The notes beneath the pieces were generated by a model that was not told the origin of the DNA, did no database searches, and saw nothing but the letters and a program-made list of their open reading frames with translations. From the NCBI GenBank assembly GCA_001787585.1, contig MFXW01000005.1, positions 1 to 43,600 on the forward strand: a DNA stretch of 43,600 bases, given 5' to 3'. The position numbers were made by a program, and so were the translations under genes. The stretch's first letter is position 1. Every line of letters starts with the position of its first letter. This DNA comes from Candidatus Peribacteria bacterium RIFCSPHIGHO2_02_FULL_53_20 (lineage in GTDB: Bacteria > Patescibacteriota > Gracilibacteria > Peribacterales > Peribacteraceae). Positions 2,474-24,671 of the stretch are shown one piece after another.

Positions 2474-2555
2474 ATCTATAGCACACAAAAACCAATCTCA
2501 TGTGCCAAAAGCATTCGGATTTAGGCTATTCCTAGATTTTTTCCCCTACGGATAT

Positions 2556-6555: not shown

Positions 6556-6642
6556 GCGGAATTTAGGGGGAGTATCTCCTAGCCTTTCGGGTCGGGTCGC
6601 GGTCTTGTGTGGGGAGAATCTTACTTATTTCTCCCTCTACAA

Positions 6643-8010: not shown

Positions 8011-8093
8011 CATACTTGGAGAGTAATCATCATGAATTCTCATGTAGAATTACCTATGTGGATCCATTACAACCAACAATCGGGGCGCCGCGG

Positions 8094-9299: not shown

Positions 9300-9320
9300 C
9301 CCTAAATCAACTAACATTCT

Positions 9321-9345
9321 GATAATAAGGTCTTACCTTATTATC
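9321..9345. repeat. Perfect 11-bp inverted repeat with 3-nt spacer (GATAATAAGGT-CTT-ACCTTATTATC)
   Basis: Read directly. It ends 8 nt before the ATG of the PLD-SNF2 gene and lies 22 nt after the stop of the wHTH/TIR-like gene. No downstream T-run. Confidence 0.9.
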
Positions 9346-9352
9346 TTAAGCT

Positions 9353-12300
9353 ATGCCTATTATCGACAACAATTCACAGACAATGCACGATGCGCTAATC
9401 AATGCACTCACAAGTGTAGATAGGGTAGATATTGAAGTAGGTTATTTTTATTTCTCAGGCTGGAAACTTCTTGCTGAACAACTCAGGGACAAAAAGATTC
9501 GCCTTCTGGTCGGTAAATATATTGACCCGGAGGCTATACCTGAACTTCTTTCAAAGATGAAACAGGAAGGAACGGATGTTGATCTCGATGCCTTCCAGTC
9601 GAGAAAGCCCATCCTATCTCGTGTGGCAAAGAAGCAAACCTACGTAAAGAGTTTTGTGAAGTTGTCTAATGAGTCTTCTCTGCTTGATGAAAGTGACAAT
9701 CAAGACGCCTATGGAATATTAGAGAGCAAAATCGCAGACGGCTCTCTTGAGATTAAAATCACCGCAAAACAGGAGCATGGAAAGATGTATATCTTGCACA
9801 ATAAGCCAAATTTCAGCCAGAACGGAGATTATCCCGGAACGGTATTTATGGGATCGAGTAATTTTACATTCCAGGGGCTACTCAATCAGGGGGAGTTAAA
9901 TGACCGCTATAGCGATAAGGAAAAATATACGAGTTATGTACAGAAATTTGAGTCCATGTGGTCTAACGCCGAGAATATTGATATCGCCACTTTGGATAAT
10001 AAGGATGAATTGCTCGATCAATTTAAAAAAGAGTTATGGGTTCATGCCTGTCCTACCCCCTATTCGGTGTACGTAAGAGTGCTGCATGAAATTTTTGGAA
10101 AAGAGGTCGATCAGAAAATCAAAACACCTGCGAAGATCACTCATGAAAAGTACGTGGATTTGGAATATCAAATTGATGCCATAAAATCTGTGATGGATAA
10201 GCTCCGGAAGTATGACGGTGTGATCGTGGCGGATGTTGTCGGTCTTGGGAAAAGCATTATTGCTTCTGCTGCCGCACATAACTTGGATTTGAATGCCATC
10301 ATTATCGCTCCTCCTCATTTGCGAGAGCAATGGGATGATTATCAAGCTGATTTTAAATTACCCGGTGCAAGATTCTACAGCTCCGGAGCGATTGCCGATG
10401 TCTATGAGAAGTTCAAAAACAATAATCAACCGCTGCTCATTATTCTTGATGAGGCACATAGATACAGGAACGAAGACACTGACGATTACCGAATGTTGCA
10501 CCACATTTGCAACAGCCACTCTGAAAATAAGGTTATTCTGTTAACGGCTACACCATTTAACAATGATCCAAAAGATGTATTTGCTCTCGTGAAGTTATTC
10601 CAAATACCGGGACAGTCCACCATTCGCTCAGTGGATAATCTCAGTTTACGTTTTAGAGAACTAATCGACAGGTACAAAAAGTTAAATCGTGACAGAAGAA
10701 CCGGAAAGATAGATCAAGCTGGCATTGATAAGGAGGCGGATGAGATATCCCTTGAATTACGTCGTTTAATCGAGAATATCGTCATACGGAGATCTCGTTT
10801 GGATTTGAAAGAGATCACGAGATATAGAGAAGACTTGGAAAGGCAGCACATAGATTTTGCAGATGTAGAAGGACCGGAGCTTCTGCAATATGACCTTGGG
10901 GATCTTTTGGATTTGTATTTGAGTACATTACTCAAAATTACCTCAGAAGATGAAGAAAACAGATTTGTGGGCGCTCGTTATAAGCCAGCCACATACATCA
11001 AAAACAGAGATGAGTTCATCAAATTGTATGGGAAGGATTTGGATGAGAGTGATCTGCAAACCGCTCAGACCAACTTGTCGAAGTTTATGAAGCGGCTTCT
11101 CGTGATGCGCTTTGAAAGCTCAAAGGATGCGTTTCGATCAACTTTGAAAAACATTATCGCTTCTCACCAGCTTATCGAGGACTGGTGGCATAAAGTGAAG
11201 AAGGTTCCGATCATGAAGAAGGGCAAAATACCTGATCCAGAATCAGTTTTGCTTACATCGGATGATAATCTGGACGAGGAAATAAAAGAACAGACGGACG
11301 ATACAGAACTTGAAAATCTAAAAGTCACGAAGGGACTTATCGCAGTTGATCGATCACTTATTGACCCGAAATTTATTGAGGACGTTTCTAATGATAAGAA
11401 GTTGCTCGAGGAAATACATGACAATTGGTTTGGGAAAGAGGCTGAAAAGCACAGGGAATTTGATCCTAAGCTTGATGAAGTGAAAAGTAGAATCGAGGAT
11501 CTTCTAAAAGATAATCCGTTGAGGAAGATCGTAATATTCTCTTCGTATGCCGATACCGTGAATTATTTGTTCAATGAATTGATTAAGCGCGGCATGCAAC
11601 GAGTGATCAAATACACTGCTGCGGATAGCAGTAAGGAGACAAAAAAAATCCTTCGAAAGAATTTTGATGCAGGCATCAAGGAAGAGGAGAAGGCTGATGA
11701 CTATGACGTTTTAATTGCAACAGATGCCCTCAGCGAGGGATACAACCTTCATCGGGCAGGCATCGTCATCAACTATGATATTCCGTACAATCCGACAAGG
11801 GTTATACAAAGAGTCGGTCGCATCAATCGTATTAACAAAAGAGTGTTCGACAAGCTCGGTGTCTATAACTGCTTCCCGACGGAGACAGGTGAATCAGAGA
11901 TTCGGGTGAAGCAGATTTCTACCTTAAAAATGCGTCTGATCAATGCCGTTGTTGGAAGTGATACAAAAACACTGACTGATGATGAAAAACTGCAAAGCTT
12001 CTTCAAGGATGAGTACCAGAAAGCTGAATCGGAAAACGAAATTATTTCATGGGACACGCCCCATAGAGAGGCATATGAGCAAGCGAAGAAAGACAAGCAT
12101 TCATTCGAGGAAGCCTTAGGCATTAAGCCACGCAGCCGTGTCATTCGTACTGGGCAGAAGAAGGAAGCCGTCGTTGCATTCGGCAAGAAAGGCGAACATG
12201 CCGTCTTTGCCCTTAAGGAAGAGTTGGCGCCGGCGATAGTTGCTGCGGAATTGGCATTGAATTATTTTGTTGCCAAAAAGGAAGAGGAGGGAAAGGAAGC

Positions 12301-12661
12301 AGATAAACAGTATGATGCAGTTTTTAAGATCGTACGAGACACGTTATTTGAAAAGCATCCATTGCCTGTTATTCGAGGAAGAAGATCTGATGCACTGAAT
12401 GTCGTAAAATTGATTGAAGAGAAAATGCCGAAAGCCAGAGATTACTGTCGTGATCTGGCTCAGATTATAAAAAAGTATGATGGCATTAGTGACGGTGATC
12501 TGAAATTGATTGCGAAGCTTAAACTGGAAGATGTACCTAGGGCGTATGAGGAACTGAGGATCGCTGTGCCAGAGCACCATATTGCTGCAATCAATGAGCG
12601 TGTTGCCCGCCTAGAAGGCGAATATGAAACAATTGTTCTTAGTGAAGAACTTCGCACATGA
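9353..12661 (+). CDS. PLD-family nuclease domain fused to SNF2/DEAH-type helicase (1102 aa)
   Basis: N-terminal PLD: ...EHGKMYILHNK...VFMGSSNFTFQGL (HxK...GSxN). Helicase motifs ADVVGLGKS (I), ILDEAHRYRN (II), LLTATPFNN (III), ATDALSEGYNLH, YNPTRVIQRVGRINR (VI). Confidence 0.9.
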   Translation: MPIIDNNSQTMHDALINALTSVDRVDIEVGYFYFSGWKLLAEQLRDKKIRLLVGKYIDPEAIPELLSKMKQEGTDVDLDAFQSRKPILSRVAKKQTYVKSFVKLSNESSLLDESDNQDAYGILESKIADGSLEIKITAKQEHGKMYILHNKPNFSQNGDYPGTVFMGSSNFTFQGLLNQGELNDRYSDKEKYTSYVQKFESMWSNAENIDIATLDNKDELLDQFKKELWVHACPTPYSVYVRVLHEIFGKEVDQKIKTPAKITHEKYVDLEYQIDAIKSVMDKLRKYDGVIVADVVGLGKSIIASAAAHNLDLNAIIIAPPHLREQWDDYQADFKLPGARFYSSGAIADVYEKFKNNNQPLLIILDEAHRYRNEDTDDYRMLHHICNSHSENKVILLTATPFNNDPKDVFALVKLFQIPGQSTIRSVDNLSLRFRELIDRYKKLNRDRRTGKIDQAGIDKEADEISLELRRLIENIVIRRSRLDLKEITRYREDLERQHIDFADVEGPELLQYDLGDLLDLYLSTLLKITSEDEENRFVGARYKPATYIKNRDEFIKLYGKDLDESDLQTAQTNLSKFMKRLLVMRFESSKDAFRSTLKNIIASHQLIEDWWHKVKKVPIMKKGKIPDPESVLLTSDDNLDEEIKEQTDDTELENLKVTKGLIAVDRSLIDPKFIEDVSNDKKLLEEIHDNWFGKEAEKHREFDPKLDEVKSRIEDLLKDNPLRKIVIFSSYADTVNYLFNELIKRGMQRVIKYTAADSSKETKKILRKNFDAGIKEEEKADDYDVLIATDALSEGYNLHRAGIVINYDIPYNPTRVIQRVGRINRINKRVFDKLGVYNCFPTETGESEIRVKQISTLKMRLINAVVGSDTKTLTDDEKLQSFFKDEYQKAESENEIISWDTPHREAYEQAKKDKHSFEEALGIKPRSRVIRTGQKKEAVVAFGKKGEHAVFALKEELAPAIVAAELALNYFVAKKEEEGKEADKQYDAVFKIVRDTLFEKHPLPVIRGRRSDALNVVKLIEEKMPKARDYCRDLAQIIKKYDGISDGDLKLIAKLKLEDVPRAYEELRIAVPEHHIAAINERVARLEGEYETIVLSEELRT

Positions 12662-15600
12662 ATCTGCAAACCGCTTATGATCGGGATACATACCTCGAAT
12701 TCCTCCGAACGTTTGTTCCGGGCTTCAAAGAGGACATCCGCAGTGCGGTGGCTGATAAGCTACAAGTGACGTCGAAAGCTTATTTTCTCGGGGAATCGGA
12801 AGACTTAGATTTATCTGTGTTTGAAATTACGCATTCATCGAGCACTGACGCTCGTGTATCGCTTTCAATGGACGGTTTCAAGCTAATGAAAACCAGCGCA
12901 ACATATCGAGCACTGATCGTCTATCGTTCTGAAAATAGCGAAGACTGGCGCTTTTCTCTCATGACAGCAACGCCGGATCTCGATGAGAAGGGAAAGGTGG
13001 TACGCAAACTTTCTAATCCGCGTAGATTCTCGTTTTTCCTAGGACCGAATGCCAAAATCAACACTCCGAAACGATTTTTGATCAAAGAAGGACCGGTAAG
13101 TGACTTTGCAGATTTACAGAATCGGTTCTCGCTGGAGGTGGTCAACAAGGAGTTCTATAAACAAATATCTGAAAAGTTCACACAGTTAGTTGGCGGTACA
13201 TTGGGAACCGGTAAGAAACAGAAAACCTACGAACCACTCATCAAATTACCTTCTCAATCTTCAAAAAGTCAGGAAAATATGGAGTTTGGCGTCCGACTGA
13301 TAGGACGCATTATTTTCTGCTGGTTCCTGCGTGAGAAGAAAAGCAAAAACAATCTTTCGTTGATGCCAGCGGAGTTACTTTCAAGCGGAGCAGTGTCAAA
13401 AAATTCTCATTATTACCATTCGATCCTCGAACCGATATTTTTTGAAGTACTCAATAAAGAACAGCGATCACGCCGGGAGGAATTTTCCGGCGAATCGTAC
13501 TCACTTATTCCGTATCTAAACGGAGGGCTATTCTCGCCACATAAAGATGACTACTACCAACGTCCGAATGGCGAGCAGTCGATTTTCCACAACACGCTTG
13601 TTATCCCTGATGCTTGGCTGAAGGAACTCTTTGAAATTCTGGAGACGTACAACTTCACTATTGACGAAAACACGAGTTTTGACGAAGAACTTTCCATTGA
13701 CCCGGAAATGCTTGGGCGCATCTTTGAAAACCTCCTTGCAGAGATCAATCCGGAAACCGGAGAATCGGCCCGTAAAAGCACAGGAAGCTACTACACGCCG
13801 CGTGTGATTGTTGATTATATGGTAGACGAAAGCCTCCTGCTCTATTTGCAGGAACACACGAAAATCCCCGAAGAAAAACTCCGAGCCGTTGTCAGTTACG
13901 ATTTAAGTGATGATGCGGAGTACAAGCTGACTGAGGAAGAAAAAAAGCTGGTTGTTCAAAGTTTAGGCAAGCTAAAACTACTCGACCCTGCTTGTGGCTC
14001 TGGCGCATTTCCTATCGGCGCACTGCAGAAGATTGTATTCATCCTTCAGCAGGTAGACCCAGATGGTAAGCACTGGTTGCAGAAACAACTGGAGAATGCA
14101 CATCCAGAATTCCGAAGGGATATTGAAAAGAAATTCTCCAATAGGGAACTGGATTTTCTTAGAAAGCTAGGAATTATTCGTGAGTGCATCTTCGGTGTAG
14201 ATATACAACCGATAGCGACTGAGATTGCACGGTTGCGCTGTTTCCTTACGCTTATCGTCGATGAACGCATTGATGATAAGGCAGAGAATCGAGGAATAAA
14301 GCCATTACCAAACCTCGACTTCAAATTTGTAACAGCAAATAGTCTCATTAATCTGCCTAAATTGGAGGAATCAATCCAATCAGCCATGTTTGATGATCAG
14401 CAAGGGATCAGCGATCTGAAAACAATTCGCGATCAATACTTCAATGCGTATGGTTTAGAAAGGGAACAGTTAAAAACTGAATTTATAACGGCACAGAAGC
14501 GGCTTGTAGATAAACTTGTGGAAGAGCATGGATATATGGGTGTTGCAAAGGCAGAATTAACCCAGAAACTCACAAGCTGGGAACCGTTTAGTCATAGTTC
14601 ATCTGGGTGGTTTGATCCTGAATGGATGTTCGGAATAAGTGATGGATTTAATATTGTGATTGCGAATCCTCCGTATGTTGATTCTGAATCCATGGCAAAA
14701 AATTATTCAGAACAACGCGAAAAATATAAAGACATTTTTGAAACTACAAAAGGAAACTGGGACCTATTTGTTCCTTTTATTGAAAGAGGATTCAATCTAA
14801 TAAATAAGGTCGGGTATTTATCGTATATAATCCCCAATAAACTGATTGCGGCAAAATATGCTATTGTCCTTAGAGAGTTCATATCTACAAAGATGGTTAG
14901 TGAAATTAGGGACTATTCAAGGTTACCTGTATTTGTGGAGGCTGATGTCTATCCCGTAACTCTCACAGCTGGGAATTCATCACCAAACAATGATGACAAA
15001 ACAAATTTCGCAACTATGGGGGCATTGGATCGGGTAAAATTTGCCAACACTTGTAATAGCACGCTCTTAAAAGATCATTCATATTGGGACATCTTTTTTT
15101 ATGAAGAAAAGATTTTTAAACTTCTCATAAAGTTACTGAGCCATACCAAATTGAAAAAGAATGGAGTTTCATTACTTGGTGCAGCGACAGTCGATGAAGC
15201 CTACAAAATAAAGAATTTAATTTGTGATTCTGAAGATACTAATCTAGCAATGAAGATGGTTAATACGGGTACTATTGATAAGTATCAATCTTTGTGGGGC
15301 GTTCGAGAAATGCAATACTTAAAGCAGAAATACAAGAACCCCATTGTTAAAAAAGAAGATATTCAGAAACTGAGCTCGACTCGTCTATCTCAGGCTGAAT
15401 CAAGAAAAATAATTATTGCTGGCATGAGCAATAAGATTGAAGCATATTATGACGATGGAGAATATTTAGCTGGTAAGTCTACAAGCATAATATTGGGTGA
15501 GCGAGAAATTTTATTGACACTTATAGGAATTCTGAATTCCAAGCTGGTCGATTTTTTTGTAAATCAATATTTCAAATCACTTAAAATGAGCGGTGGCTAT

Positions 15601-15792
15601 ATCAATATAAATAAAGATGTTCTTGAGAACATTCCAATTGCCACAAGGAAAAACGTTCCACTATTAAATTTAGTCAGCAAAATGAATCAATCACCTGACA
15701 ATAACACTAAACAGAGGATTGATCAGATGGTGTATGAACTTTATAAATTGACCCCAGAAGAGATTGAAATTGTTGAAAGTTCCAGCAAGTAG
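12658..15792 (+). CDS. Eco57I/PglX-like gamma-class N6-adenine DNA methyltransferase with C-terminal target-recognition domain (1044 aa)
   Basis: GSYYTPRVIVDYMV, motif I LLDPACGSGAFPIGA, motif IV VIANPPYV, and a TRD-like LIGILNSKLVDFFV. ATGA overlap with the helicase stop at 12658-12661. No PD-ExK motif seen in the N-terminal 200 aa. Confidence 0.9.
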   Translation: MNLQTAYDRDTYLEFLRTFVPGFKEDIRSAVADKLQVTSKAYFLGESEDLDLSVFEITHSSSTDARVSLSMDGFKLMKTSATYRALIVYRSENSEDWRFSLMTATPDLDEKGKVVRKLSNPRRFSFFLGPNAKINTPKRFLIKEGPVSDFADLQNRFSLEVVNKEFYKQISEKFTQLVGGTLGTGKKQKTYEPLIKLPSQSSKSQENMEFGVRLIGRIIFCWFLREKKSKNNLSLMPAELLSSGAVSKNSHYYHSILEPIFFEVLNKEQRSRREEFSGESYSLIPYLNGGLFSPHKDDYYQRPNGEQSIFHNTLVIPDAWLKELFEILETYNFTIDENTSFDEELSIDPEMLGRIFENLLAEINPETGESARKSTGSYYTPRVIVDYMVDESLLLYLQEHTKIPEEKLRAVVSYDLSDDAEYKLTEEEKKLVVQSLGKLKLLDPACGSGAFPIGALQKIVFILQQVDPDGKHWLQKQLENAHPEFRRDIEKKFSNRELDFLRKLGIIRECIFGVDIQPIATEIARLRCFLTLIVDERIDDKAENRGIKPLPNLDFKFVTANSLINLPKLEESIQSAMFDDQQGISDLKTIRDQYFNAYGLEREQLKTEFITAQKRLVDKLVEEHGYMGVAKAELTQKLTSWEPFSHSSSGWFDPEWMFGISDGFNIVIANPPYVDSESMAKNYSEQREKYKDIFETTKGNWDLFVPFIERGFNLINKVGYLSYIIPNKLIAAKYAIVLREFISTKMVSEIRDYSRLPVFVEADVYPVTLTAGNSSPNNDDKTNFATMGALDRVKFANTCNSTLLKDHSYWDIFFYEEKIFKLLIKLLSHTKLKKNGVSLLGAATVDEAYKIKNLICDSEDTNLAMKMVNTGTIDKYQSLWGVREMQYLKQKYKNPIVKKEDIQKLSSTRLSQAESRKIIIAGMSNKIEAYYDDGEYLAGKSTSIILGEREILLTLIGILNSKLVDFFVNQYFKSLKMSGGYININKDVLENIPIATRKNVPLLNLVSKMNQSPDNNTKQRIDQMVYELYKLTPEEIEIVESSSK

Positions 15793-15793
15793 C

Positions 15794-16717
15794 ATGGCAA
15801 GTCCTAATCCAACAAAACATCAGCACTTTGTGCCTCTCTTTTATCTTAAGAATTTTGCTGACAATGACGGGTATCTTGATGTGCTCAATATCAAAGAAAA
15901 AAGGATGGCAAAACGACGACCATATCAGGGACTGGGTTATGAATATTACTACTACGCAGTCAATACCGGCATGCCCGATGATACGTCGCAACAGGTTGAG
16001 GAATGGTTGAAGCCAACTGAAGATTATCTTGCCAAGCAACTACCGAGAATCATTGATGTAATACTTCAAAATCAGCAGATAGAAGACAATGACCGATATA
16101 TTCTTGCTGTATTAATGAGCATGCTCTGGTTGAGAACCCCGAGTATGAGAAACGATATACAACAAACGGAAGACCAGATGGTCGAGCAGATAAAGAGATT
16201 GCACGGAACAGAATATGCCAATCAATTGAGAAGTACGGACAACATCACGCATCTCAAATTCATGGTCGAAACATTGGGCTTTGGTGGCCCAGGCTTCACA
16301 AATCTCTTTTTCTCCATGAAATGGAAAGCGTACATCGCACGGGGAAAAGAAGTTTTTATTACATCGGACTCACCTGTTGTTGAAAAATTTCCGCCACCAA
16401 CCAGTTTCTGGGGAGCACATTCCTTTTTAGAAAGGAATAAGTATTTTGCTCTTACTCCAGATATTCTTTTTGAGTTAACTGAGCCAGTTGGATCTACCAA
16501 AGTTAGGCGTAAGACTATCTATGAAGAAGACGATGACATTGTCAAAACTCTAAACATGATTCTTATAAGTGGTGCTCAAGATTATGCATATTCAGGAAGT
16601 AGAATATGTCTTGATCAGATTTTGGCTGGCAGAAACAATCCTGGATATCTTGAAAAGAAGTATTTGGAACAGTATGAAAAGCCGTGGGCTGAATATCATG
16701 CAAAAATGAGAACATAA
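15794..16717 (+). CDS. DUF4238-like protein
   Basis: N-terminus MASPNPTKHQHFVPLFYLKNF matches the recalled DUF4238 opening (HyvPqfYLrnF). ATG 15794 lies 1 nt after the methylase stop; the track start at 15764 is TTG. Confidence 0.65.
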   Translation: MASPNPTKHQHFVPLFYLKNFADNDGYLDVLNIKEKRMAKRRPYQGLGYEYYYYAVNTGMPDDTSQQVEEWLKPTEDYLAKQLPRIIDVILQNQQIEDNDRYILAVLMSMLWLRTPSMRNDIQQTEDQMVEQIKRLHGTEYANQLRSTDNITHLKFMVETLGFGGPGFTNLFFSMKWKAYIARGKEVFITSDSPVVEKFPPPTSFWGAHSFLERNKYFALTPDILFELTEPVGSTKVRRKTIYEEDDDIVKTLNMILISGAQDYAYSGSRICLDQILAGRNNPGYLEKKYLEQYEKPWAEYHAKMRT

Positions 16718-16847: not shown

Positions 16848-17588
16848 ATGCGAAAGAAAAATATCTTTAATCCGGCGTCTACAGAGCCATACAAGCTCAG
16901 CCGCTCTCGACTGGACCGGTTTCTTAAGTGTCCCTGCTGCTTCTACATGGATCGCAGACTAGGAGTGGATCAAGTATCGGGTCCGGCATTCACGCTCAAT
17001 AGCGCAACGGATACACTTCTGAAGAAAGAATTTGATGTTTGCAGGGCAAAAGGAATACCACACCCTCTCATGAAGAAACATAAAGTGAATGCCATTCCCT
17101 TCAAGCATCCTGATATCGACATATGGAGGGAAAACTTCAAAGGAGTGCAGCATCTTCATAAACCCACTAATCTGCTCATTACGGGGGCAGTGGATGATGT
17201 ATGGGTGGATCCAAAGGGCAACTTGAGCGTTGTGGACTACAAATCGACCAGCACCACCAAAGAAATAGACCTGAATGACGGAACTCCGTGGAAAGACGGC
17301 TACAAGCGTCAGATGGAGATTTACCAGTGGCTACTGCGTCAAAATGGATTCAAGGTGAATGACATTGGATATTTCGTCTATGTGAATGCCGATACGGATC
17401 AAGATGCATTCGACGGAAAATTAGTCTTCGATGAAGAAATCATTGTGCATAAAGGGGACGACAGCTGGGTAGAGCAGGCCATCATCGACGCTCACAAGTG
17501 TCTACGGAGGAAGAAGATACCGAAGGGTTCGGAGGGTTGTGAGTGGTGCGTGTATCGTGCGGATGCTTCAAAAGTTCTCGGCGCTTGA
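16848..17588 (+). CDS. Cas4/RecB-like PD-(D/E)XK nuclease with flanking Cys cluster
   Basis: GAVDDVWV...VVDYKS...QMEIYQWLL (D...DxK...QxxxY). Cysteines at KCPCCFY (N-terminal) and CLRRK...GCEWC (C-terminal), as in Fe-S Cas4-type nucleases. Confidence 0.75.
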   Translation: MRKKNIFNPASTEPYKLSRSRLDRFLKCPCCFYMDRRLGVDQVSGPAFTLNSATDTLLKKEFDVCRAKGIPHPLMKKHKVNAIPFKHPDIDIWRENFKGVQHLHKPTNLLITGAVDDVWVDPKGNLSVVDYKSTSTTKEIDLNDGTPWKDGYKRQMEIYQWLLRQNGFKVNDIGYFVYVNADTDQDAFDGKLVFDEEIIVHKGDDSWVEQAIIDAHKCLRRKKIPKGSEGCEWCVYRADASKVLGA

Positions 17589-17635: not shown

Positions 17636-17665
17636 TTGGAGCTCAGTATATTCGGAGTGTATAAT
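17636..17665 (+). promoter_or_regulatory. Candidate sigma70-type promoter for tRNA-Arg (TTGGAG-18 nt-TATAAT)
   Basis: TTGGAG at 17636-17641 and TATAAT at 17660-17665, embedded in the palindrome GTGTATAATACAC, about 80 nt upstream of the tRNA. Confidence 0.3.
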
Positions 17666-17745
17666 ACACACATGTCCACTCTGAGGTTTATGCATCGGCC
17701 CGTTGCCGCCCATAGTGGCTATCAAAGAAGACGGAGGTAAATCAT

Positions 17746-17820
17746 GCCTCCGTAGTTCAACGGAAAGAATGCCCTGGTTCTAACTGGGAGATGTGGGTTC
17801 GATTCCTGCCGGGGGCACCA
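17746..17820 (+). tRNA. tRNA-Arg(UCU): tRNA-Arg, anticodon UCU, genomically encoded CCA
   Basis: Hand-folded cloverleaf. Acceptor GCCTCCG/CGGGGGC (one G.U), D-loop with GG, anticodon loop GTTCTAA, T-arm GTGGG-TTCGATT-CCTGC, then A-CCA. One U.U mismatch in the anticodon stem lowers confidence in the isotype. Confidence 0.72.
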
Positions 17821-17917
17821 AATTCACAGAACAGCAAATCTCTTTGTATTTGAGCTCAATGCCTACTTGTATCAACATCTACTCTAAAAGTAAGGTACTA
17901 TTACCGTTCTAGTAAGT

Positions 17918-18679
17918 ATGACAACATCAGATTCCACAGCACTGGAGAAAATGGAACGACTTCAAACCATTTTATCTAGTGAAAAGAAAGAAAAAGAAAA
18001 GTTTGGAGAAGCACAAAATCTGTATGCTGAGCTTGAAGATTTGATAATTGAAATTGATCCTATAACTCCATACAAAGTTGAATTTATTCGAGGAAGTCCG
18101 ATTCTGTGCAAGACAGACATTTATGCTGGTTATTTCACAGGCATGCTGGATTACAGAGGAAAAGGAGAAATGCAACTAAGGAAAGTAATTGCAAAGCTCA
18201 AGAACAGGGAGTCTTCTTTAGAAAAGAAGACACCAGCCCAGCACTCACCAATGGAAATGGTGATAAGAATTATGAAAAATTTTCGCGCATGTTGTCAATT
18301 TTCTAAGCACCCTACTTCTGAAAAAGAGGTGCAGGATATTTTGTGGATAATGCTTAGAGGTGCTTTCAGCTTAATCAGAGAAGAAACACTTCCAAAGTTT
18401 GCGGCCAAAAGTTATATACCAGACTTTGCAATCCCAGAAGTCAGGGCTTTAGTAGAAGTAAAATTTATTGGAGAAAAGACCCAACCAAAACATATCCAAG
18501 AAGAGATACTTGCTGATATTCAGCCATACCTTAAAAATACTGGGGACTATGAATCCGTGATCGTATTTATTTATGATCATGCGAATAAGATAAAGGATGA
18601 ATCAAAATTTGTATCTGATTTGGAGGCTGTGGAAGGTATTCACTGCGTAATTATCATGCACAGCATAGCATCAACATAA
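17918..18679 (+). CDS. Hypothetical protein with C-terminal PD-(D/E)XK-like nuclease motif
   Basis: EKEVQDILWIML...SYIPDFAIPEVRALVEVKFIG fits E...PD...(E)xK. N-terminal half is coiled-coil-like/unknown. Motif-level call only. Confidence 0.5.
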   Translation: MTTSDSTALEKMERLQTILSSEKKEKEKFGEAQNLYAELEDLIIEIDPITPYKVEFIRGSPILCKTDIYAGYFTGMLDYRGKGEMQLRKVIAKLKNRESSLEKKTPAQHSPMEMVIRIMKNFRACCQFSKHPTSEKEVQDILWIMLRGAFSLIREETLPKFAAKSYIPDFAIPEVRALVEVKFIGEKTQPKHIQEEILADIQPYLKNTGDYESVIVFIYDHANKIKDESKFVSDLEAVEGIHCVIIMHSIAST

Positions 18680-18765
18680 AAAAGAAGTGATTTAATCATT
18701 TCCTGATAAGCTCCCATAGGGCGCACCAATCTTTATAATCGGATAGTCTATACTACTTTTAAAAT

Positions 18766-20115
18766 ATGACAGCCTTCCTAACACCACGACTCGAACAAGC
18801 AATGGAACTCGCAATACGGGTCCATGGACCTATGAAGCGGAAGGGTGATGATCAGCCTTATCTAGTCCATCCAATGAGCGTTTTGGCCTTGCTTGTCCAA
18901 TGGGGTTCAGATGAGGACACCTGCATCGCAGGGCTCCTCCATGATGTGATCGAGGATGCCGAAGATGATTCCAAGCGAGCGAAATACCGGAAAGAGATCG
19001 AAGAGAAATTCGGCAGGGAGGTACTGGAAATCGTGGAGGGCGTGACCGAGCAGGATAAATCATTGCCGTGGAAGGAGCGGAAAATGCTCTATTTGAAGCA
19101 TCTGAAAGAAGCATCCGAAGCATCACTGCTCGTGAGCTGCGCGGATCGGACACATAACATGTCGTCCCTGGTCGAGAGCTACAGGAATGAAGGGGAAGAA
19201 GTGTGGAAGCGATTCAATGCCGGAAAGGAGCAGCAAATTTGGTTTGTCAGGAGTGTCTTTGAGATCCTTCATAAGCGACTTGGGTCGCCCTACACAGAGG
19301 ATCTGGAGCAAACAATGATGAAGCTGGAGAATGTTTCTGCGGAGTCGTCTGTCGCGGTTGGAGATGATGCTCAACAAAAATTGGTGAAGTTCACCGCTAA
19401 AGAATTTCTGAAGATTGCGGAGATTGCTAAGTCGTTCGTTGAGAAGGGAACAGCCGACAATCCTCCCAAGTTCGTCATTATGACGGGTGGCCCCGGTGCA
19501 GGGAAATCAACGATACGCAAGCGGGACTACAGTCAGGGGTATGTGCATTTTGATCCCGGCGACATCTTTGCAGAGATGAGAAAAATTAAGGACGAAAGCA
19601 ATGTGAAATTTAACGCCTCTATTTCGTTTACCTGCGAATTACTTTTGAGACAAGCGATAGAGGAAAGGAAGAACATCGTCACGGAGGTCATCGGAGATAC
19701 GTACGAACCCCTCAAGTCTATTATGGATAAAATGCTTGAGATTGGTTATACGATTGATGTCCGGGCCGTTACAGCCGATGTTGCAGAATCATATCAACGG
19801 CATCTCAAGGCAGTAAAAGAAGATCCTGGCTATCTTTCAGCAGCCTTAACACAAGGCACCACTCTATCTACTTTTTCACATGTTCTCGAAATAGAAGTTA
19901 CGGGTAAAAAGGATAGAACCTTTCAAAAAACAACACCGGAGAAATATCTTGAATCCTACAATACAGCCGTAGAAGCTGCTCGCGGGAAAATCAGAACTGG
20001 TAAAGACGATCTGGAGAAGCAAAAAACTTGTCCTCATGACTTTGATAGTCTAATCGGAGATCTACTCCATGGCCCGTGTGTTTGTAGCGATTGCGGAAAG
20101 GCAATTGCCAACTGA
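18766..20115 (+). CDS. Fusion: SpoT/Mesh1-type HD (small-alarmone-hydrolase-like) domain + zeta-toxin/AAA_33-like P-loop kinase + C-terminal Zn ribbon
   Basis: HD domain: YLVHPMSVLALL...IAGLLHDVIEDAEDD...VSCADRTHNM. P-loop: FVIMTGGPGAGKSTIRKRDY... with a kinase-like core. C-terminus CPHDFDSLIGDLLHGPCVCSDCG. Confidence 0.8.
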   Translation: MTAFLTPRLEQAMELAIRVHGPMKRKGDDQPYLVHPMSVLALLVQWGSDEDTCIAGLLHDVIEDAEDDSKRAKYRKEIEEKFGREVLEIVEGVTEQDKSLPWKERKMLYLKHLKEASEASLLVSCADRTHNMSSLVESYRNEGEEVWKRFNAGKEQQIWFVRSVFEILHKRLGSPYTEDLEQTMMKLENVSAESSVAVGDDAQQKLVKFTAKEFLKIAEIAKSFVEKGTADNPPKFVIMTGGPGAGKSTIRKRDYSQGYVHFDPGDIFAEMRKIKDESNVKFNASISFTCELLLRQAIEERKNIVTEVIGDTYEPLKSIMDKMLEIGYTIDVRAVTADVAESYQRHLKAVKEDPGYLSAALTQGTTLSTFSHVLEIEVTGKKDRTFQKTTPEKYLESYNTAVEAARGKIRTGKDDLEKQKTCPHDFDSLIGDLLHGPCVCSDCGKAIAN

Positions 20116-20212: not shown

Positions 20213-20842
20213 TTATTTCGTTACCAGATGTTCTGCTACAAATTTGGCATACCAAGAGAATACTGGTTGCAGCAACGGAAGCAATTTTACAGCTATAAAG
20301 AGAAGTGCCAAAAGAGCACAAAGGGAAGCAAAACGCCGAAAAGCCTCTTTGCTTACTTTCATAAAGAACAAATTGATACGCGTGGGCGGAGCGGCAATTT
20401 CCTCATACCATTTTCTTGTATCGCCCCAAAGCAAGATCAAGAACCATTTACAGATAAAGTATGTCATCCAATTGCGGAGGTAGACGTGGATGTCGCGCCT
20501 TGCCCGGACCATGCTATCGGATCGGCGAACGAGGCCATAGTCTTCAAGTATCAGATCAATATTTTTCCTTGGGAATGTCCTTTCATGAATAGTGCCTGCA
20601 AAGCCAATTGGTGATGCAAATTCGTAGGCTCTATCAGATGAATCAAGTGGCTTCGATGACAGCCATATCTGAATGTATCTATCAGCCAGCCACATTTTCC
20701 AGCCAGTCCCTCGTGCTGGTCTGTTATTCCGTAGCAATACCCATACATGAAACGGGGCAATAAAAAGAACAAACACGGCTACGATCGCAATCCATGCAAG
20801 ATTGTCCAGAGCGATGCGAAATAAATAGGCAATGAGTTCCAT
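20213..20842 (-). CDS. Multi-pass membrane protein (2-3 predicted TM helices), unknown family
   Basis: From ATG 20842: MELIAYLFRIALDNLAWIAIVAVFVLFIAPFHVWVLL..., WMTYFICKWFLILLWG, FASLCALLALLFIAVKLLPLL. Starts 24 nt after the DUF4062 gene stop on the same strand. The track start at 20860 is TTG. Confidence 0.6.
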   Translation of the reverse strand: MELIAYLFRIALDNLAWIAIVAVFVLFIAPFHVWVLLRNNRPARGTGWKMWLADRYIQIWLSSKPLDSSDRAYEFASPIGFAGTIHERTFPRKNIDLILEDYGLVRRSDSMVRARRDIHVYLRNWMTYFICKWFLILLWGDTRKWYEEIAAPPTRINLFFMKVSKEAFRRFASLCALLALLFIAVKLLPLLQPVFSWYAKFVAEHLVTK

Positions 20843-20866
20843 GTAATGAGAATTATACAAGATTGG

Positions 20867-22009
20867 TTATACAACATCTTTATTAACCTGACGCCTTAGC
20901 ATTGCCAATACCCTCTGTATTTCACTGCTAGGGTTATCGAAATCAGCGTAATCAATGTGTCGAGGCTGATCAAAAGCAACGACCATATCACTGCCGCCCA
21001 TGTTCATTGGATATGATTGCTTTTTTTCAGAGCTCCTGCCCATGCGCTTATAACCGATACCTGCAAGTGCCACTGCATAGTAGAAGTCATGATATTTTCT
21101 GTGAGGATCACGTTGCTTATAGAATTCCGCCGCGAAACTGAATACAGATAGCAGAGTTTTCTCTATCATTTGTTCATCGATCTCGAAGGCACTCTGAATA
21201 TTTAGAGGGTTTTTGTTTTGCTCAACGACATTCGTTATCACTTGAAGTACACCTTTTTCACTAACAATCAGCGTGATGAAATTTCCAGATCGATGATCGT
21301 TACGTTGGTACACAATGATATGACCGTTCTCAAAAGAAACCTCTGTACTTCTATCGTACGGAAAAAGTTTAATGCGGCGATTGTGCACCAGATCAATCAA
21401 CGAGTCCTTGAAGTCACTATCTTCCATAGTGACCGGATCAATTACCTCGTTATCCCGTACTGGGGCGATGACAACGTTTAGTCTGGTTTCATCGCTTCGT
21501 TGCCGAAACTCCTGTACTGCAGCCTGTATTTTGCTCGTATTAGTTGTGGGAATACTCATGACTTTAAGGCTCTGGGAAAGGGAATCCACTATAACACTGC
21601 GAAGTTCTTCCTTACTGGAAAATGTTTTTCGAAACTTTCCTTCTACGTAACTGCTGACGTTCTTTGCCAATGATGCAGCAGGTTCGTCACGCTCTGTTCC
21701 TTCTAGGAATGCAAAAACGGGTATTTTTCTCCTACGTGCTTCCTCATACTCTTCTTCAATAACCAGCTTCCCCGATGGGGTTACTGATCCTCCTGATGAT
21801 CCCAAAATAAGAATGAAGGCATCCGAAGATGCTACCGCATCCAAACAGGTATTTCTCGGTGATGCATCAAGCGCGGGGAAATCTTCATTAACAAGAATGG
21901 GGTCGCCACCAGCTTCTTCCACGGCAGTCCTAGCAATCTCTCGGTAAATCTGAAAATTATTCAGCACAGAGCTGATGAAAACCCGTGGCTTCTGGTGTCC
22001 ATCAACCAT
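20867..22009 (-). CDS. DUF4062 (TIR/NDT-like fold) N-terminal domain protein with ~250-aa unknown C-terminal region
   Basis: From ATG 22009: MVDGHQKPRVFISSVLNNFQIYREIARTAVEEAGGDPILVNEDFPALDASPRNTCLDAVASSDAFILILGSSGG...EEEYEEARRRKIPVFAFL matches the recalled DUF4062 consensus (vFiSS...R...mE.f.a....cl..i..cD.fi.i.g..YG...E...A...gkP.l.Fl). The track start at 22075 is TTG. Confidence 0.75.
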   Translation of the reverse strand: MVDGHQKPRVFISSVLNNFQIYREIARTAVEEAGGDPILVNEDFPALDASPRNTCLDAVASSDAFILILGSSGGSVTPSGKLVIEEEYEEARRRKIPVFAFLEGTERDEPAASLAKNVSSYVEGKFRKTFSSKEELRSVIVDSLSQSLKVMSIPTTNTSKIQAAVQEFRQRSDETRLNVVIAPVRDNEVIDPVTMEDSDFKDSLIDLVHNRRIKLFPYDRSTEVSFENGHIIVYQRNDHRSGNFITLIVSEKGVLQVITNVVEQNKNPLNIQSAFEIDEQMIEKTLLSVFSFAAEFYKQRDPHRKYHDFYYAVALAGIGYKRMGRSSEKKQSYPMNMGGSDMVVAFDQPRHIDYADFDNPSSEIQRVLAMLRRQVNKDVV

Positions 22010-22148
22010 GGAATTGAATGTTGGGACTGCCACATTTATGGCAGCGAACACGCTGAGGCTGTTGACCCCTTGCAACGATCACATGGGTGGGTTCAACATC
22101 TGCCTCATACTCATGTCCGCAATCCTGGCATTGATATATCTTTCTCAT
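22002..22148 (-). CDS. Small Zn-ribbon protein (48 aa, FmdB-like CxxC...CxxC); not in the ORF track
   Basis: Hand translation: MRKIYQCQDCGHEYEADVEPTHVIVARGQQPQRVRCHKCGSPNIQFHG*. Its stop (22004-22002) overlaps the ATG (22009-22007) of the DUF4062 gene within ATGGTTGA. Confidence 0.55.
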   Translation of the reverse strand: MRKIYQCQDCGHEYEADVEPTHVIVARGQQPQRVRCHKCGSPNIQFHG

Positions 22149-22208: not shown

Positions 22209-22319
22209 GAGTGCCATCTTCTATAATCGATGTGTTGTGTTCCATAAAAACCAATCGGGTCGCACCACACCGGTGCAACTGATGGTCAAGATTGCGGGTC
22301 GCTTAAGACGCGCAAGTAG

Positions 22320-22396
22320 TGGTGGAGCTGAAGGGAGTCGAACCCTTGACCCCCTGCTTGCAAAGCAGGTGCTCTGACCAACTGAGCTACAGCCCC
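22320..22396 (-). tRNA. tRNA-Ala(UGC): tRNA-Ala, anticodon UGC, encoded CCA
   Basis: Reverse complement GGGGCTGTAGCTCAGTTGGTCAGAGCACCTGCTTTGCAAGCAGGGGGTCAAGGGTTCGACTCCCTTCAGCTCCACCA. Clean cloverleaf, G3.U70 Ala identity pair, anticodon loop TTTGCAA. Confidence 0.95.
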
Positions 22397-22438: not shown

Positions 22439-23599
22439 TCACGTAACAACTTCCTCCAGCCTCCCCTCTCCCACCGCAGCTTTAATCTCCATCCCGATCC
22501 TCTCTCCTACACTCATAGCTTCGCCGTAGAGATACCGCGTATAGGGAGTGGCAAACGTCCCAGGAGAACCCGGAATCCGAAACGATACATCAAAGATCAC
22601 GATATCCTCCTTTCCATCTTCCGTAACAACGGCTCCCTGCAGCGCAAACGGCCCGATGATGCCTTTGCCTGTGGGATCGAATTTCTTCGGAAGTTTTTTG
22701 CACTGAGCGACAAATTTTTCGCCGAGCTCGAACGCTTTTTCGAGAAGGGATTCTTTCACCGTGACCGCGATGTGCCCGGTCTCCACCATCTTCACGGAGG
22801 TGAATTGCTTCGCCCAAATCTGATCTTCGGCAGTCATCCGGAGAAATCCGTCGAGATTGGTCTGCCGGCGGGTATCTGTCCCGAGCAATTCCAGTTCCCC
22901 AGTGAGCGGCGAATAGAAGAAGTTGAAATTCACAGGAGCGCCGACGACAAATTCCTCGATCGTCGCATCGTCCATGGCATCAGAAGAGATCATTCCGGAA
23001 GCGATGTGGGCAGAGACGCGCTCGTCAAAATCCGTTGCGGTAGCCATGAAAAACCCGCGCTCGTAACGGCGCTGTGCCTCGCGCGCCTTCACAATCACCA
23101 TCCGACCGAGATCGATATCCTTTGCGCCCTTATATAGTTTGGGAGTGCGTATGCCGGCATCCCGCAAAAGATGATACTGATTGTACGGCTGATCGCGTTC
23201 CTCGAGCATCATCAGATGCCGCGAACCGAAGATCGGAACCCTAAACTCCTCTTCCACTTTCTTGTAGTCCGGGAAATACACCCAGAAGTACCTATTATGA
23301 ACAAAAATTGTGTTCATCTTTTGGAGCTTCTCTTGAATCTTTTGCTGCAATACATCTTCGAATTTATCCACAACGATCGTGTCATCGATGCAACCTGTTT
23401 GCGCCCTTGCGCCCTTGCGCCCTTTCTTCACCTGAAAATACTTCTCATACGTCTTCTCCCTCCCCTTCCGTGCTATGCACACCGTCCCAAATCCATATTT
23501 CTTCGCTCCGTGGGCGACATCGAGCGCGCTGTGACCGCCGAGCACACCGACCGTCAGGTGTTTTTGATCGTAGCCTGCAAGGAGAGAGGATATGTCCAT
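22439..23599 (-). CDS. PurP-like ATP-grasp protein (divergent paralogue of FAICAR synthetase)
   Basis: VGVLGGHSALDVAHGAKKYGF..., FFYSPLTGELELLGTDTRRQTNLDG, IIGPFALQ..., SVGERIGMEIK parallel the PurP pattern of the neighbouring gene. ATG at 23599; the track start at 23635 is GTG. Confidence 0.8.
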   Translation of the reverse strand: MDISSLLAGYDQKHLTVGVLGGHSALDVAHGAKKYGFGTVCIARKGREKTYEKYFQVKKGRKGARAQTGCIDDTIVVDKFEDVLQQKIQEKLQKMNTIFVHNRYFWVYFPDYKKVEEEFRVPIFGSRHLMMLEERDQPYNQYHLLRDAGIRTPKLYKGAKDIDLGRMVIVKAREAQRRYERGFFMATATDFDERVSAHIASGMISSDAMDDATIEEFVVGAPVNFNFFYSPLTGELELLGTDTRRQTNLDGFLRMTAEDQIWAKQFTSVKMVETGHIAVTVKESLLEKAFELGEKFVAQCKKLPKKFDPTGKGIIGPFALQGAVVTEDGKEDIVIFDVSFRIPGSPGTFATPYTRYLYGEAMSVGERIGMEIKAAVGEGRLEEVVT

Positions 23600-23618
23600 G
23601 ATTTTTAGTGTAACTCTT

Positions 23619-24671
23619 TTACCCCAATACCTCACGTAATCTCCCCTGCTTAATCGCCGTTTTAATATCGCGAGCGATGCGCCGACCTGTACTCATAGGC
23701 TCTTTATACCGAAGCGCCGTATACGGTGATCCTTCCACGAAGGGATTGGTGCCAGCAACGATCCTTGCGCTGATTTCAAAGACGAAGATCTCGAGTTTCC
23801 GCGTGACGATGCACTCAAGACAGAACGGGCCGAAGAGACCTTTTCCCCCGCACATCTTCTTGCTTGTTTTCACCACTCTATCCCCCATTGCGAAGAATTC
23901 CGGAAGCATCGACTCGCGGATGACGACCGGGATATTACCGACAATCGTGTAGCTTGTGTAAATATTGGCCGAGAGCTGATCTTCCGCCCGGATACGACCG
24001 ATACTGTCGGCATTGGATTCATAACGCTTGTCGAAACTCATGATCTCCAATTCTTGCGTGAGTGGTGAGAAGAAGTAATGCGCGTAAATCGGCACGCCGA
24101 CGATGTACTCCTGGAGCGCGAAATCATTCTGCTCGGGATACTTGCGGTTCTTCACTTCGTAAAACTGCTCCGCACTTTTGGCGATGAAGTACCCGAATCC
24201 CCCACCCGCTCCGTGGAATTTCACAATCACGGGCTTCTTGATCTCCTCGGGAGTCGCAAAGACCCTAGGCATTTTGATATCAGCCGCCTCGAGCCATTGT
24301 CGCTCCATCGTGCGGTTGCTCTCCCACTCGAGAATCTCCTTCGTGCCGAAGTACATCGCTTTCATCGCTTTCACACGATCATGACCCATGTACGCAATGA
24401 AGGAACCATGCGGAATGATGATCGCATTACGTTTGACGAGTTCCTTCTCCACCTTCTCCCATTCGGACCAGTCATCCACATAGAGGATTTCATCAGCGAC
24501 TCCGTAACTCTTATATGCCCTCTCTGCTCCTTTCTTGCAGACGACAACATTACGCATACCCTCTTGCCGCGCTCCATGCAGAATCTGCAGCGCGGAGTGA
24601 CTGCCCATCGTGGCAATGACGTAGTCACTGGGATTTTTTGAAGCCGGTAGGGATGCTTTCTTCGAAACCAT
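23619..24671 (-). CDS. purP: Archaeal-type 5-formaminoimidazole-4-carboxamide ribonucleotide (FAICAR) synthetase PurP
   Basis: IATMGSHSALQILHGAR, IIPHGSFIAY, FDKRYESNADS, VGNIPVVIRESMLPEFFAMGDRVV, GPFCLE, STGRRIARDIK closely track my recollection of Methanocaldococcus PurP (MJ0136). Confidence 0.88.
   Translation of the reverse strand: MVSKKASLPASKNPSDYVIATMGSHSALQILHGARQEGMRNVVVCKKGAERAYKSYGVADEILYVDDWSEWEKVEKELVKRNAIIIPHGSFIAYMGHDRVKAMKAMYFGTKEILEWESNRTMERQWLEAADIKMPRVFATPEEIKKPVIVKFHGAGGGFGYFIAKSAEQFYEVKNRKYPEQNDFALQEYIVGVPIYAHYFFSPLTQELEIMSFDKRYESNADSIGRIRAEDQLSANIYTSYTIVGNIPVVIRESMLPEFFAMGDRVVKTSKKMCGGKGLFGPFCLECIVTRKLEIFVFEISARIVAGTNPFVEGSPYTALRYKEPMSTGRRIARDIKTAIKQGRLREVLG

Follow-up and report, generated by a model that had tools for sequence, protein, structure and literature searches.

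Small alarmone hydrolases (SAHs) cleave the pyrophosphate from the 3' position of (p)ppGpp and (p)ppApp. In the toxSAS modules they work as type IV antitoxins that degrade the products of the toxins (PMC7229694), including the modification that the toxSAS FaRel2 puts on the 3'-CCA of tRNA (PMC11245113). Their homologue MESH1 acts on NADPH, from which it takes the 2'-phosphate, and on CoA, which loses its 3'-phosphate (10.1101/325266, PMC13221220). The 3'-OH of NAD can also be phosphorylated, to give 3'-NADP, by AvrRxo1, which is a homologue of the Zeta toxins (PMC5087710, PMC5491322), and in the Runella slithyformis HD-Pnk (PMC6097658, citing Munir and Shuman 2017) an N-terminal HD phosphoesterase and a C-terminal P-loop kinase are combined in one polypeptide. 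Here we compare with these systems a gene from Candidatus Peribacteria bacterium RIFCSPHIGHO2_02_FULL_53_20, found in a stretch of 43,600 nucleotides (contig MFXW01000005.1, positions 1 to 43,600 of the forward strand) that is referred to as the window. The gene (18766-20115, + strand, with an ATG start), called HD-kinase hereafter, encodes a protein of 449 amino acids (aa) that begins with an SAH-type HD domain and continues through a linker and a Zeta-like kinase to a Cys/His tail. Our analysis leads us to suggest, tentatively and as something that falls a little short of probable, that the gene encodes a coupled "writer and eraser" pair acting as a toxin-antitoxin or abortive-infection conflict module on an element mobilised by a serine recombinase. 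Related loci and proteins are given by L and P numbers, respectively.

What does such a locus share with the toxSAS/SAH modules, of which FaRel/ATfaRel is an example (PMC7229694, PMC11782079)? In both, an SAH-type HD domain stands beside an enzyme through which a nucleotide or tRNA gains phosphate at the ribose 3' position, an activity that for the window kinase is only presumed, and prophages or mobile elements carry the genes in both cases. In the known modules the antitoxin erases the product of the toxin, as is proposed for the window pair. The differences lie with the writer, which here is a P-loop Zeta-like kinase and not a RelA/SpoT synthetase, which would transfer a monophosphate rather than a pyrophosphate, and which often forms one chain with the eraser. 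No RelA/SpoT synthetase accompanies HD-kinase, since its neighbours contain no match to PF04607 and a tblastn search with a small alarmone synthetase finds none in the window.

The HD domain

The first 190 residues of the protein (18766-19335, + strand) are assigned as a RelH-type SAH domain on the basis of PDB matches and intact motifs. Pfam HD_4 matches aa 12-153 with 70.6 bits against a cut-off of 27.2 (1.6e-19), and the closest solved structure is 7qoc, a "guanosine polyphosphate pyrophosphohydrolase", with an E-value of 1e-35 over about aa 5-175. Further matches are to 7qoe (6e-32), Lmo0812 (4yf1, 5e-20) and MESH1 (5vxa, 8e-12), with MESH1 and the long Rel enzymes falling between 1e-12 and 1e-9 among PDB sequences. 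The NCBIfam model spoT_relA is aligned only via its N-terminal positions, about 122 of them. The motifs on which the original prediction had relied for an alarmone-hydrolase assignment are indeed present, namely RKG..HP (aa 25-36), LLHDVIEDA (57-65) and CADRTHNM (125-132), and in an alignment RKG..HP, HDxxED and ADxxHN are kept across the fused and adjacent HD domains described below. The catalytic and metal-binding roles of the R-K pair, the His of HP, the HD and ED pairs and the Asp and Asn of ADxxHN are known from Rel and MESH1.

In comparison with the stand-alone SAHs RelH (7qoc, 7qoe), Lmo0812 and MESH1, the whole of the SAH fold can be aligned, including the C-terminal FNAGKEQQIW helix, and all of the catalytic residues are found in the window domain. 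Unlike the stand-alone enzymes, however, the window domain is joined to a kinase and a Cys/His tail, and its gene resides on a mobile defence island, whereas the former are encoded by housekeeping stringent-response genes. HD-kinase has no synthetase domain, yet its HD part is fused to the kinase and tail within 449 aa, and for this reason we speak of an SAH-type domain and not of a stand-alone SAH.

The kinase domain and its family

A linker (19336-19395, aa 191-210, + strand), which is 40% identical to that of P0002 and has a pLDDT of less than 50 at aa 198-203, leads into a Zeta/PezT-like P-loop kinase core (19396-19890, aa 211-375, + strand) that is recognised by Pfam, profile and fold. 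The Pfam Zeta_toxin profile scores 47.1 bits against a cut-off of 22.3 (2.6e-12) at aa 230-348 and is matched at positions 12-142 of 199, the C-terminal part of the profile having no counterpart; it matches 55 of 69 members of the kinase family. The models for AAA_33, AAA_17, adenylate kinase and PNK all fall far under threshold in Pfam and NCBIfam, with the PNK models reaching E-values of 0.023 in NCBIfam and 0.8 in a search of PDB sequences. An AlphaFold2 model of the kinase half, made for aa 195-449 with the 69 family sequences as input, has a pLDDT of 95-98 over most of the core. When this was compared with the PDB by Foldseek the top matches were PezT (2p5t, 5.5e-6) and zeta (1gvn, 6.5e-6), with TM-scores of 0.45-0.48, and zeta 3q8x (about 1e-5); next in rank came the Pnkp1 kinase (4xrp, 1.3e-4) and T4 Pnk (1ly1, 3.9e-4), and then nucleoside monophosphate kinases. 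The family profile, searched against PDB sequences, gives a similar order of PezT (0.005), zeta (0.024), Pnkp1 (0.23) and CoaE (1.1).

As Zeta and PezT lead by both fold and family profile, the kinase half is best regarded as a Zeta-like small P-loop kinase and not as a housekeeping kinase. The latter option, which the original prediction had named as the outcome that would undo it, was rejected for adenylate, UMP/CMP, CoaE and shikimate kinases alike, because Zeta/PezT is closest by Pfam, fold and profile, because the housekeeping matches extend only over the P-loop with E-values of 0.01-1, and because the gene lies outside a core-genome context. Characteristic motifs are found on the + strand at 19486-19512 (Walker A, GGPGAGKST, aa 241-249), 19543-19569 (acidic motif, VHFDPGDIF), 19672-19698 (NIVTEVIGD) and 19792-19815 (YQRHLKAV). 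Of these GGPGAGKST, FDPGD, NIVTEVIGD and YQRHL are present and conserved, with the catalytic Asp of PezT placed 1-2 residues off the conserved acidic positions in the HMM alignment. The family also has motifs of its own, which read GG-G-GKTT-R, (D/E)-x-G(D/E)I, NIV-EIIGD and RHLKAV..D..Y-SA-FTQ.

The resemblance to epsilon/zeta, PezAT and AvrRxo1-Arc1 consists of a match above the Pfam Zeta_toxin threshold and a fold nearest to PezT and zeta, together with an apparent conservation of the Walker A, acidic and ExxG motifs and of the lid arginine, subject to the offset of the PezT Asp. Against this, the sequence identity is only 16-20%, the C-terminal part of the Zeta profile is missing, the RHLKAV...Y-SA-FTQ motif is particular to the new family, and the partner is here an enzyme, either HD or an NT5C-type nucleotidase. 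A protein inhibitor of the epsilon, PezA or Arc1 type was looked for near HD-kinase with Pfam, NCBIfam and PADLOC, and no antitoxin family was matched; directly upstream are a nuclease and a tRNA in the window and a short unrelated open reading frame (ORF) in L001, with no epsilon or PezA antitoxin.

An exhaustive HMMER search returned 273 kinase clusters at 50% identity (E at or below 1e-3). Most members stand alone, with a length of either about 185 or about 268 aa, and the few that are named, which come from Patescibacteria, are called "zeta toxin family protein" or "hypothetical". A genome scan with a trimmed family alignment placed the kinase mainly in lineages of the candidate phyla radiation (CPR), with a few assemblies labelled DPANN, Omnitrophota or other. 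Among viral predicted structures (BFVD) most named matches to the kinase are "Zeta toxin domain" proteins, and phage polynucleotide kinases occur there too. One BFVD entry, A0A6J5LTH6, a phage protein of 1134 aa with the annotation "Anti-CBASS protein Acb1", holds a domain structurally resembling the kinase, which hints that Zeta-like kinases may also occur within multi-domain anti-defence proteins.

The Cys/His tail and the protein as a whole

The protein ends in a helix and a Cys/His tail (19936-20112, aa 391-449, + strand), with the cluster itself at 20029-20097. It had been described as containing a CxxxxC element, which is absent; the sequence is C422-x-H424...H435-x2-C438-x-C440-x2-C443, and the tail probably binds zinc. 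No Pfam family matches it. Between the window protein and P0002 the tail is 96.6% identical, whereas the HD domain reaches 77% and the kinase 73%. It is a portable module, found alone or on other proteins (P0124, P0180, P0187, P0198, P0225 and P0239), the carriers including a small protein of 59-74 aa, proteins with an unrelated "MERPGHPG" N-domain, and one HD protein that has no kinase.

The assignment of an HD domain and a zeta-like P-loop kinase to the 449-aa ORF was thus correct by Pfam, NCBIfam and PDB matches, and from their sequences both catalytic domains are intact and appear catalytically competent. In the AlphaFold2 model of the full-length protein (mean pLDDT 89.8, pTM 0.60) the single domains are confident though no confident packing between them is seen. 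The identical protein recurs in several samples, on 7 contigs. No PADLOC model exists for it, and the single match, to VakA, is sub-threshold (E 0.0085), so that a component of a known defence system was rejected as its identity. A scan for promoters and terminators around the gene gave counts no different from those in shuffled sequence.

Coupling of the two domains across genomes

The association of the HD and kinase domains was surveyed by fetching loci, by phmmer on called ORFs and by tblastn on all loci. Among the matches in a collection of 5.8 billion proteins, PF13328 and PF06414 occur together only in the window protein, in P0002 (76% identical) and in P0005 (39%). The architecture is accordingly rare and has no functional annotation, where the original prediction had allowed that it might already be common and functionally annotated. 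In the loci, the two activities are brought together in several different ways. They are fused in the order HD then kinase in the window, L001/L002, L006 (Taylorbacteria), L038, L026, L052 and P0005, and in the reverse order in P0244, where Pfam places Zeta_toxin at aa 129-252 and HD_4 at aa 278-404. Separate genes, with the kinase first and the HD gene 2-36 bp behind it, are found in L004, L016, L019, L020, L023, L055 and L056, separate genes in the order HD then kinase in L022, and genes with one further gene between them in L028/L058/L059 and L048. The genes of no known function between or beside the pair gave nothing useful with Pfam.

Judged by eye from the alignment, at least three clearly distinct sequence groups can be told apart among the partnered HD domains, with the motifs intact in all. 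The HD domains of P0005, L006 and L038 are only about 39% identical to that of the window. As these groups are distinct, and as the partnered loci are spread across a rough neighbour-joining tree of the kinase, the sequences suggest several independent unions of HD and kinase. Such repeated fusion and adjacency strongly supports the treatment of the two halves as one functional unit, which had been the starting assumption. Among loci with flanks of at least 1.5 kb or with a partner seen, 17 of 28 have a phosphohydrolase partner and 11 have none, a count that is biased towards partnered loci as these entered even with short flanks. Across the whole family most members are kinase-only.

The partner is not always an HD domain. 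A 5'(3')-nucleotidase of the NT5C type lies beside the kinase in L003 (1702-2208) and in L060 (3494-3988), on opposite sides of the kinase, the two genes being 67% identical to each other, and in L032 (1797-1856) and L033 (7553-7612) the kinase is followed by 20 aa left over from the N-terminus of NT5C. That NT5C can take the place of the HD partner points to a kinase product that is a phosphate ester of the mononucleotide type. In L058/L059 a gene for a 56-aa protein similar to the MazE/AbrB-type antitoxins (4781-4951) is directly upstream of a stand-alone kinase, in the order OLD-family nuclease, MazE-like gene, kinase, a 174-aa gene without assignment, and HD gene.

The surroundings of the module recur as well. 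In at least 13 loci it comes directly after restriction genes (of type III, type I or type IIG) or after GmrSD or OLD genes, and near serine recombinases or transposases, which are often close to these kinase loci. The kinase, with or without an HD gene, directly follows type III Res genes in L020, L023 and L025, HsdR in L060, GmrSD in L033, L048, L056 and L062, and a KAP NTPase with DUF2779 in L057, and in L058 it comes after the OLD nuclease and the MazE-like gene.

A proposed writer and eraser

How might the two activities work together? Under the tentative toxin-antitoxin or abortive-infection reading, the Zeta/AvrRxo1-like kinase would transfer a phosphate from ATP to an essential adenine or guanine nucleotide, at the 3' (or 2') hydroxyl of the ribose, with NAD+, a nucleoside triphosphate (NTP) or deoxynucleoside triphosphate (dNTP), dephospho-CoA and the tRNA CCA end as candidate substrates. 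The product would be toxic or would block replication, and the SAH-type HD domain, or NT5C, would remove the phosphate that the kinase had added. In the fused form a trigger would probably set the balance of kinase versus HD activity, and this could possibly be sensed via the highly conserved Cys/His tail or via the adjacent restriction enzymes, giving a second line of defence like that of PrrC. In favour of this reading are the identity of the two domains with their intact motifs, their repeated fusion and adjacency, the replacement of the HD partner by NT5C, the MazE-like gene that precedes the kinase in L058 and L059, the restriction, GmrSD or OLD genes nearby and the precedents of the SAH antitoxins, AvrRxo1 and MESH1, and overall the evidence favours a toxin-antitoxin or defence role over the healing of RNA ends.

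A number of points weigh on the other side. About a third or more of the well-flanked kinase loci have no recognisable hydrolase or antitoxin. The HD clade nearest to the window protein, from Peregrinibacteria and 72-74% identical to the window HD domain, also occurs without a kinase in the same position after restriction genes, which means that the HD domain may have a role of its own. Such kinase-less SAH-type proteins are encoded directly after type III restriction-modification genes in L063 (4502-5783) and L064 (5001-6512), adjoined by either a serine recombinase or an IS1595 transposase; Sel1 repeats occur in one of the proteins, and their placement ties this HD clade to restriction systems in its own right. 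In addition, the substrate of the kinase is entirely inferred, constitutively fused antagonists would need a regulatory switch, and the Foldseek E-values for polynucleotide kinases are only about 20- to 70-fold weaker than those for Zeta/PezT.

The last of these points bears on the rival that fares best, which is that the protein heals RNA or DNA ends in the manner of the Runella HD-Pnk or of bacterial Pnkp. In that case the kinase would act on 5'-OH ends and the HD domain would remove 2',3'-cyclic or 3'-phosphates, and the damage mended would be that done to tRNA or other nucleic acids when ribotoxins or nucleases cut them in conflicts between mobile elements and their hosts. The order of an N-terminal HD domain and a C-terminal P-loop kinase is the same as in HD-Pnk (PMC6097658), but the HD domain of the window is specifically of the RelA/SpoT type (HD_4, SAH), with all of the alarmone-hydrolase motifs and its best match to 7qoc. 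A similarity of fold between the window kinase and Pnk kinase domains is detectable, as Foldseek finds Pnkp1 and T4 Pnk at 1e-4 to 4e-4 and phage polynucleotide kinases appear among the viral structures, although Pfam, profile and fold all place the kinase nearer to Zeta/PezT, and an assignment to the polynucleotide-kinase type is not borne out, the NCBIfam PNK model reaching just 0.023. The alternative partner NT5C can be read either way, for it belongs to the HAD superfamily, which also contains the phosphatase domains of T4 Pnk and mammalian PNKP, whereas NT5C enzymes act on mononucleotides. Cas4-like or other PD-(D/E)XK nucleases do lie upstream at several loci, as might suit a repair enzyme, but no ligase, Hen1 or Tpt1 gene is seen in the neighbours examined, where for ligase families Pfam gave no match among the island ORFs from 6.6 to 22.1 kb, in L001, L002 and ten further loci, or in selected neighbours of 12 more. 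Taken together this makes end-healing, whether of tRNA or of other nucleic acids, unlikely.

A second rival holds that the protein is a counter-defence tool of a phage-like element, in which the SAH destroys host alarmones or toxSAS products and the kinase inactivates an immune signal or metabolite of the host. Phage SAHs neutralise all of the toxSAS toxins tested (PMC7229694), and phrog_990, a family of phosphohydrolases from phages, matches the HD domain of the window at 2.6e-22. Phage proteins often contain Zeta-like domains, one of these proteins being annotated with Acb1, and the island that carries HD-kinase comes after TerS/TerL and ParB-methylase genes. The modules, however, close restriction, GmrSD or OLD operons at their 3' end and share their orientation, which places them with defence genes; among 2.9 million viral contigs scanned there were only three relatives, all weak, of 26-37% identity; and the MazE-like gene upstream of the kinase suggests the control of a toxin. 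We regard a counter-defence role as decidedly unlikely. Less likely still is a signalling or metabolic cycle outside of any conflict, in which one protein would both make and hydrolyse a nucleotide messenger phosphorylated at the 3' position, with a P-loop kinase replacing the Rel synthetase, for although both domains look competent from sequence and long RelA/SpoT enzymes share the order of HD then writer, the distribution is patchy and confined to mobile islands, the flanking cassettes are variable, HD-kinase is the most diverged of the shared island genes (75.6% at the nucleotide level versus 82-89% for its neighbours) and most family members are kinases alone.

Returning to the toxin-antitoxin and defence reading, we can offer a more specific form of it, which we place on the unlikely side: that in CPR bacteria the role of writer passed from the RelA/SpoT synthetase to a Zeta-like P-loop kinase, with an SAH as the eraser, that a new 3'-phosphorylated nucleotide such as 3'-NADP or a chain-blocking 3'-phospho-NTP or -dNTP would be the toxic output of a second-line defence coupled to restriction, and that the tail would be the switch. 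As to novelty, in the library searched no paper mentions a small alarmone hydrolase together with a zeta toxin, or an alarmone hydrolase together with a P-loop kinase, and the sole distinct paper listed for zeta toxin and Patescibacteria deals with another superfamily. That the rare and unannotated fusion amounts to an enzyme-antitoxin type of toxin-antitoxin module with a new writer seems to us a real possibility, held with some reserve. If it does, the principle by which an enzyme antitoxin erases the product of the toxin would widen from alarmone synthetases to Zeta-type kinases, and there would be a testable handle on the role of SAH-type hydrolases in lineages or elements that have no synthetase. 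A new toxic or signalling nucleotide could emerge, and a role would be given to a kinase family of about 270 clusters (50% identity), mainly from CPR bacteria, whose members sit beside restriction systems in a group whose defences have hardly been explored. With NT5C as an alternative partner and with many independent fusions to draw on, the hypothesis is easily testable with a few recombinant proteins.

The mobile island in the window

HD-kinase is carried on an island of about 6.6-22.25 kb, which runs from a serine recombinase to the flank of a tRNA-Ala gene and is common to contig L001, the carrier of P0002. The GC content is 0.36-0.47 from about 9 kb to 22.3 kb and mostly 0.5-0.6 downstream of the island. 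Near the left end is a large serine recombinase (6607-8010, + strand; Pfam Resolvase, Recombinase and Zn_ribbon_recom), which is 98% identical at the aa level to the recombinase of L001. Just past the right boundary, from where the GC content rises, ARAGORN places tRNA-Ala(TGC) (22320-22396, - strand), and in its flank the window at 22249-22348 is 96% identical in nucleotides (nt) to the end of L001. On comparison of the two contigs HD-kinase is a conserved cargo gene of the island, at 76% aa identity, and L001, which lacks several of the window's cassettes, has a second recombinase. To the left, 2502-8010 holds a gene for a ParB-N and DNA methylase protein, a second methylase, terminase subunits and the large serine recombinase; the genes for TerS and TerL lie at 4560-6555 (+ strand), with TerL matching phrog_38 at 3e-75. 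The whole appears to be a phage-like element that reaches the tRNA-Ala gene and has the defence island as its cargo end.

After the recombinase comes a 453-aa ORF (7938-9299, + strand) with no match in Pfam or PHROG, in a region where window 7119-14676 corresponds to L001 1-7558 at 83.6% nt identity and where the L001 counterpart is an unannotated gene of 401 aa. An SNF2-helicase/PLD gene (9353-12661, + strand) and a type IIG restriction-methylase gene (12658-15792, + strand), both recognised by Pfam and PADLOC, are co-oriented with HD-kinase, upstream of it and syntenic with L001 2235-8737. The first is 92% identical at the aa level in L001 and the second 60-77%, and this lower identity, set against the 92-93% of neighbours, suggests a swap of the specificity domain. 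A DUF4238 protein (15764-16717, + strand; Pfam 7.6e-30, with a weak PADLOC match to DUF4238-Pers) belongs to a strain-specific cassette absent from L001. The conserved upstream neighbour of HD-kinase is a Cas4-like PDDEXK_1 nuclease (16848-17588, + strand; Pfam 1.8e-12), which matches the cas4 NCBIfam model at 3.7e-6 and 26.9 bits, below the cut-off of 65. It is 93% identical in L001 and L002, and a homologue lies upstream of a kinase-only gene in L018.

Between the Cas4-like gene and HD-kinase is a variable cassette within the island that holds tRNA-Arg(TCT) (17746-17820, + strand, by ARAGORN) and a gene for a 253-aa PD-(D/E)XK nuclease with a helical N-domain (17918-18679, + strand). The earlier PD-(D/E)XK-like reading of the latter can be narrowed to the DpnII/MboI type, from Pfam REase_DpnII-MboI (1.5e-25) and PADLOC Aga_Helical-REase (3.8e-30). 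The window at 17640-18762 has no counterpart in L001, and no tRNA was found in L001 or L002. The nuclease is present on the other contigs that bear the identical HD-kinase protein, and it was rejected as a functional partner because it is absent from L001 and L002, which keep HD-kinase, and has no homologue in other kinase loci. It had also been proposed that two tRNA 3' ends bracket a 4.5-kb segment around HD-kinase. Both ends do face the segment, but it does not stand as a meaningful or integrating unit: the island is larger, tRNA-Arg is cargo of the variable cassette, and no att-like direct repeats were found for the segment. As L001 lacks tRNA-Arg and the nuclease yet keeps HD-kinase, the bracket is incidental.

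Convergent with HD-kinase is a gene for a 215-aa protein of no known function (20213-20860, - strand), 83% identical in L001 and L002, which is possibly membrane-associated from a single sub-threshold Pfam match to TMD0_ABC (E 0.045). Next to it a 402-aa protein with a DUF4062 domain (20867-22075, - strand; Pfam 2.4e-16) represents a strain-specific cassette with no counterpart in L001. The DUF4062 gene followed by the 215-aa gene (20213-22075, - strand) looks like a separate two-gene cassette, and in L001 the 215-aa protein is paired instead with an unrelated protein of 325 aa. Just outside of the island, at 22439-24671 (- strand), are two tandem and slightly overlapping genes, the first of which matches DUF1246 and DUF1297, domains typical of PurP, an archaeal-type enzyme of purine biosynthesis, and the second of which looks similar to the first by eye.

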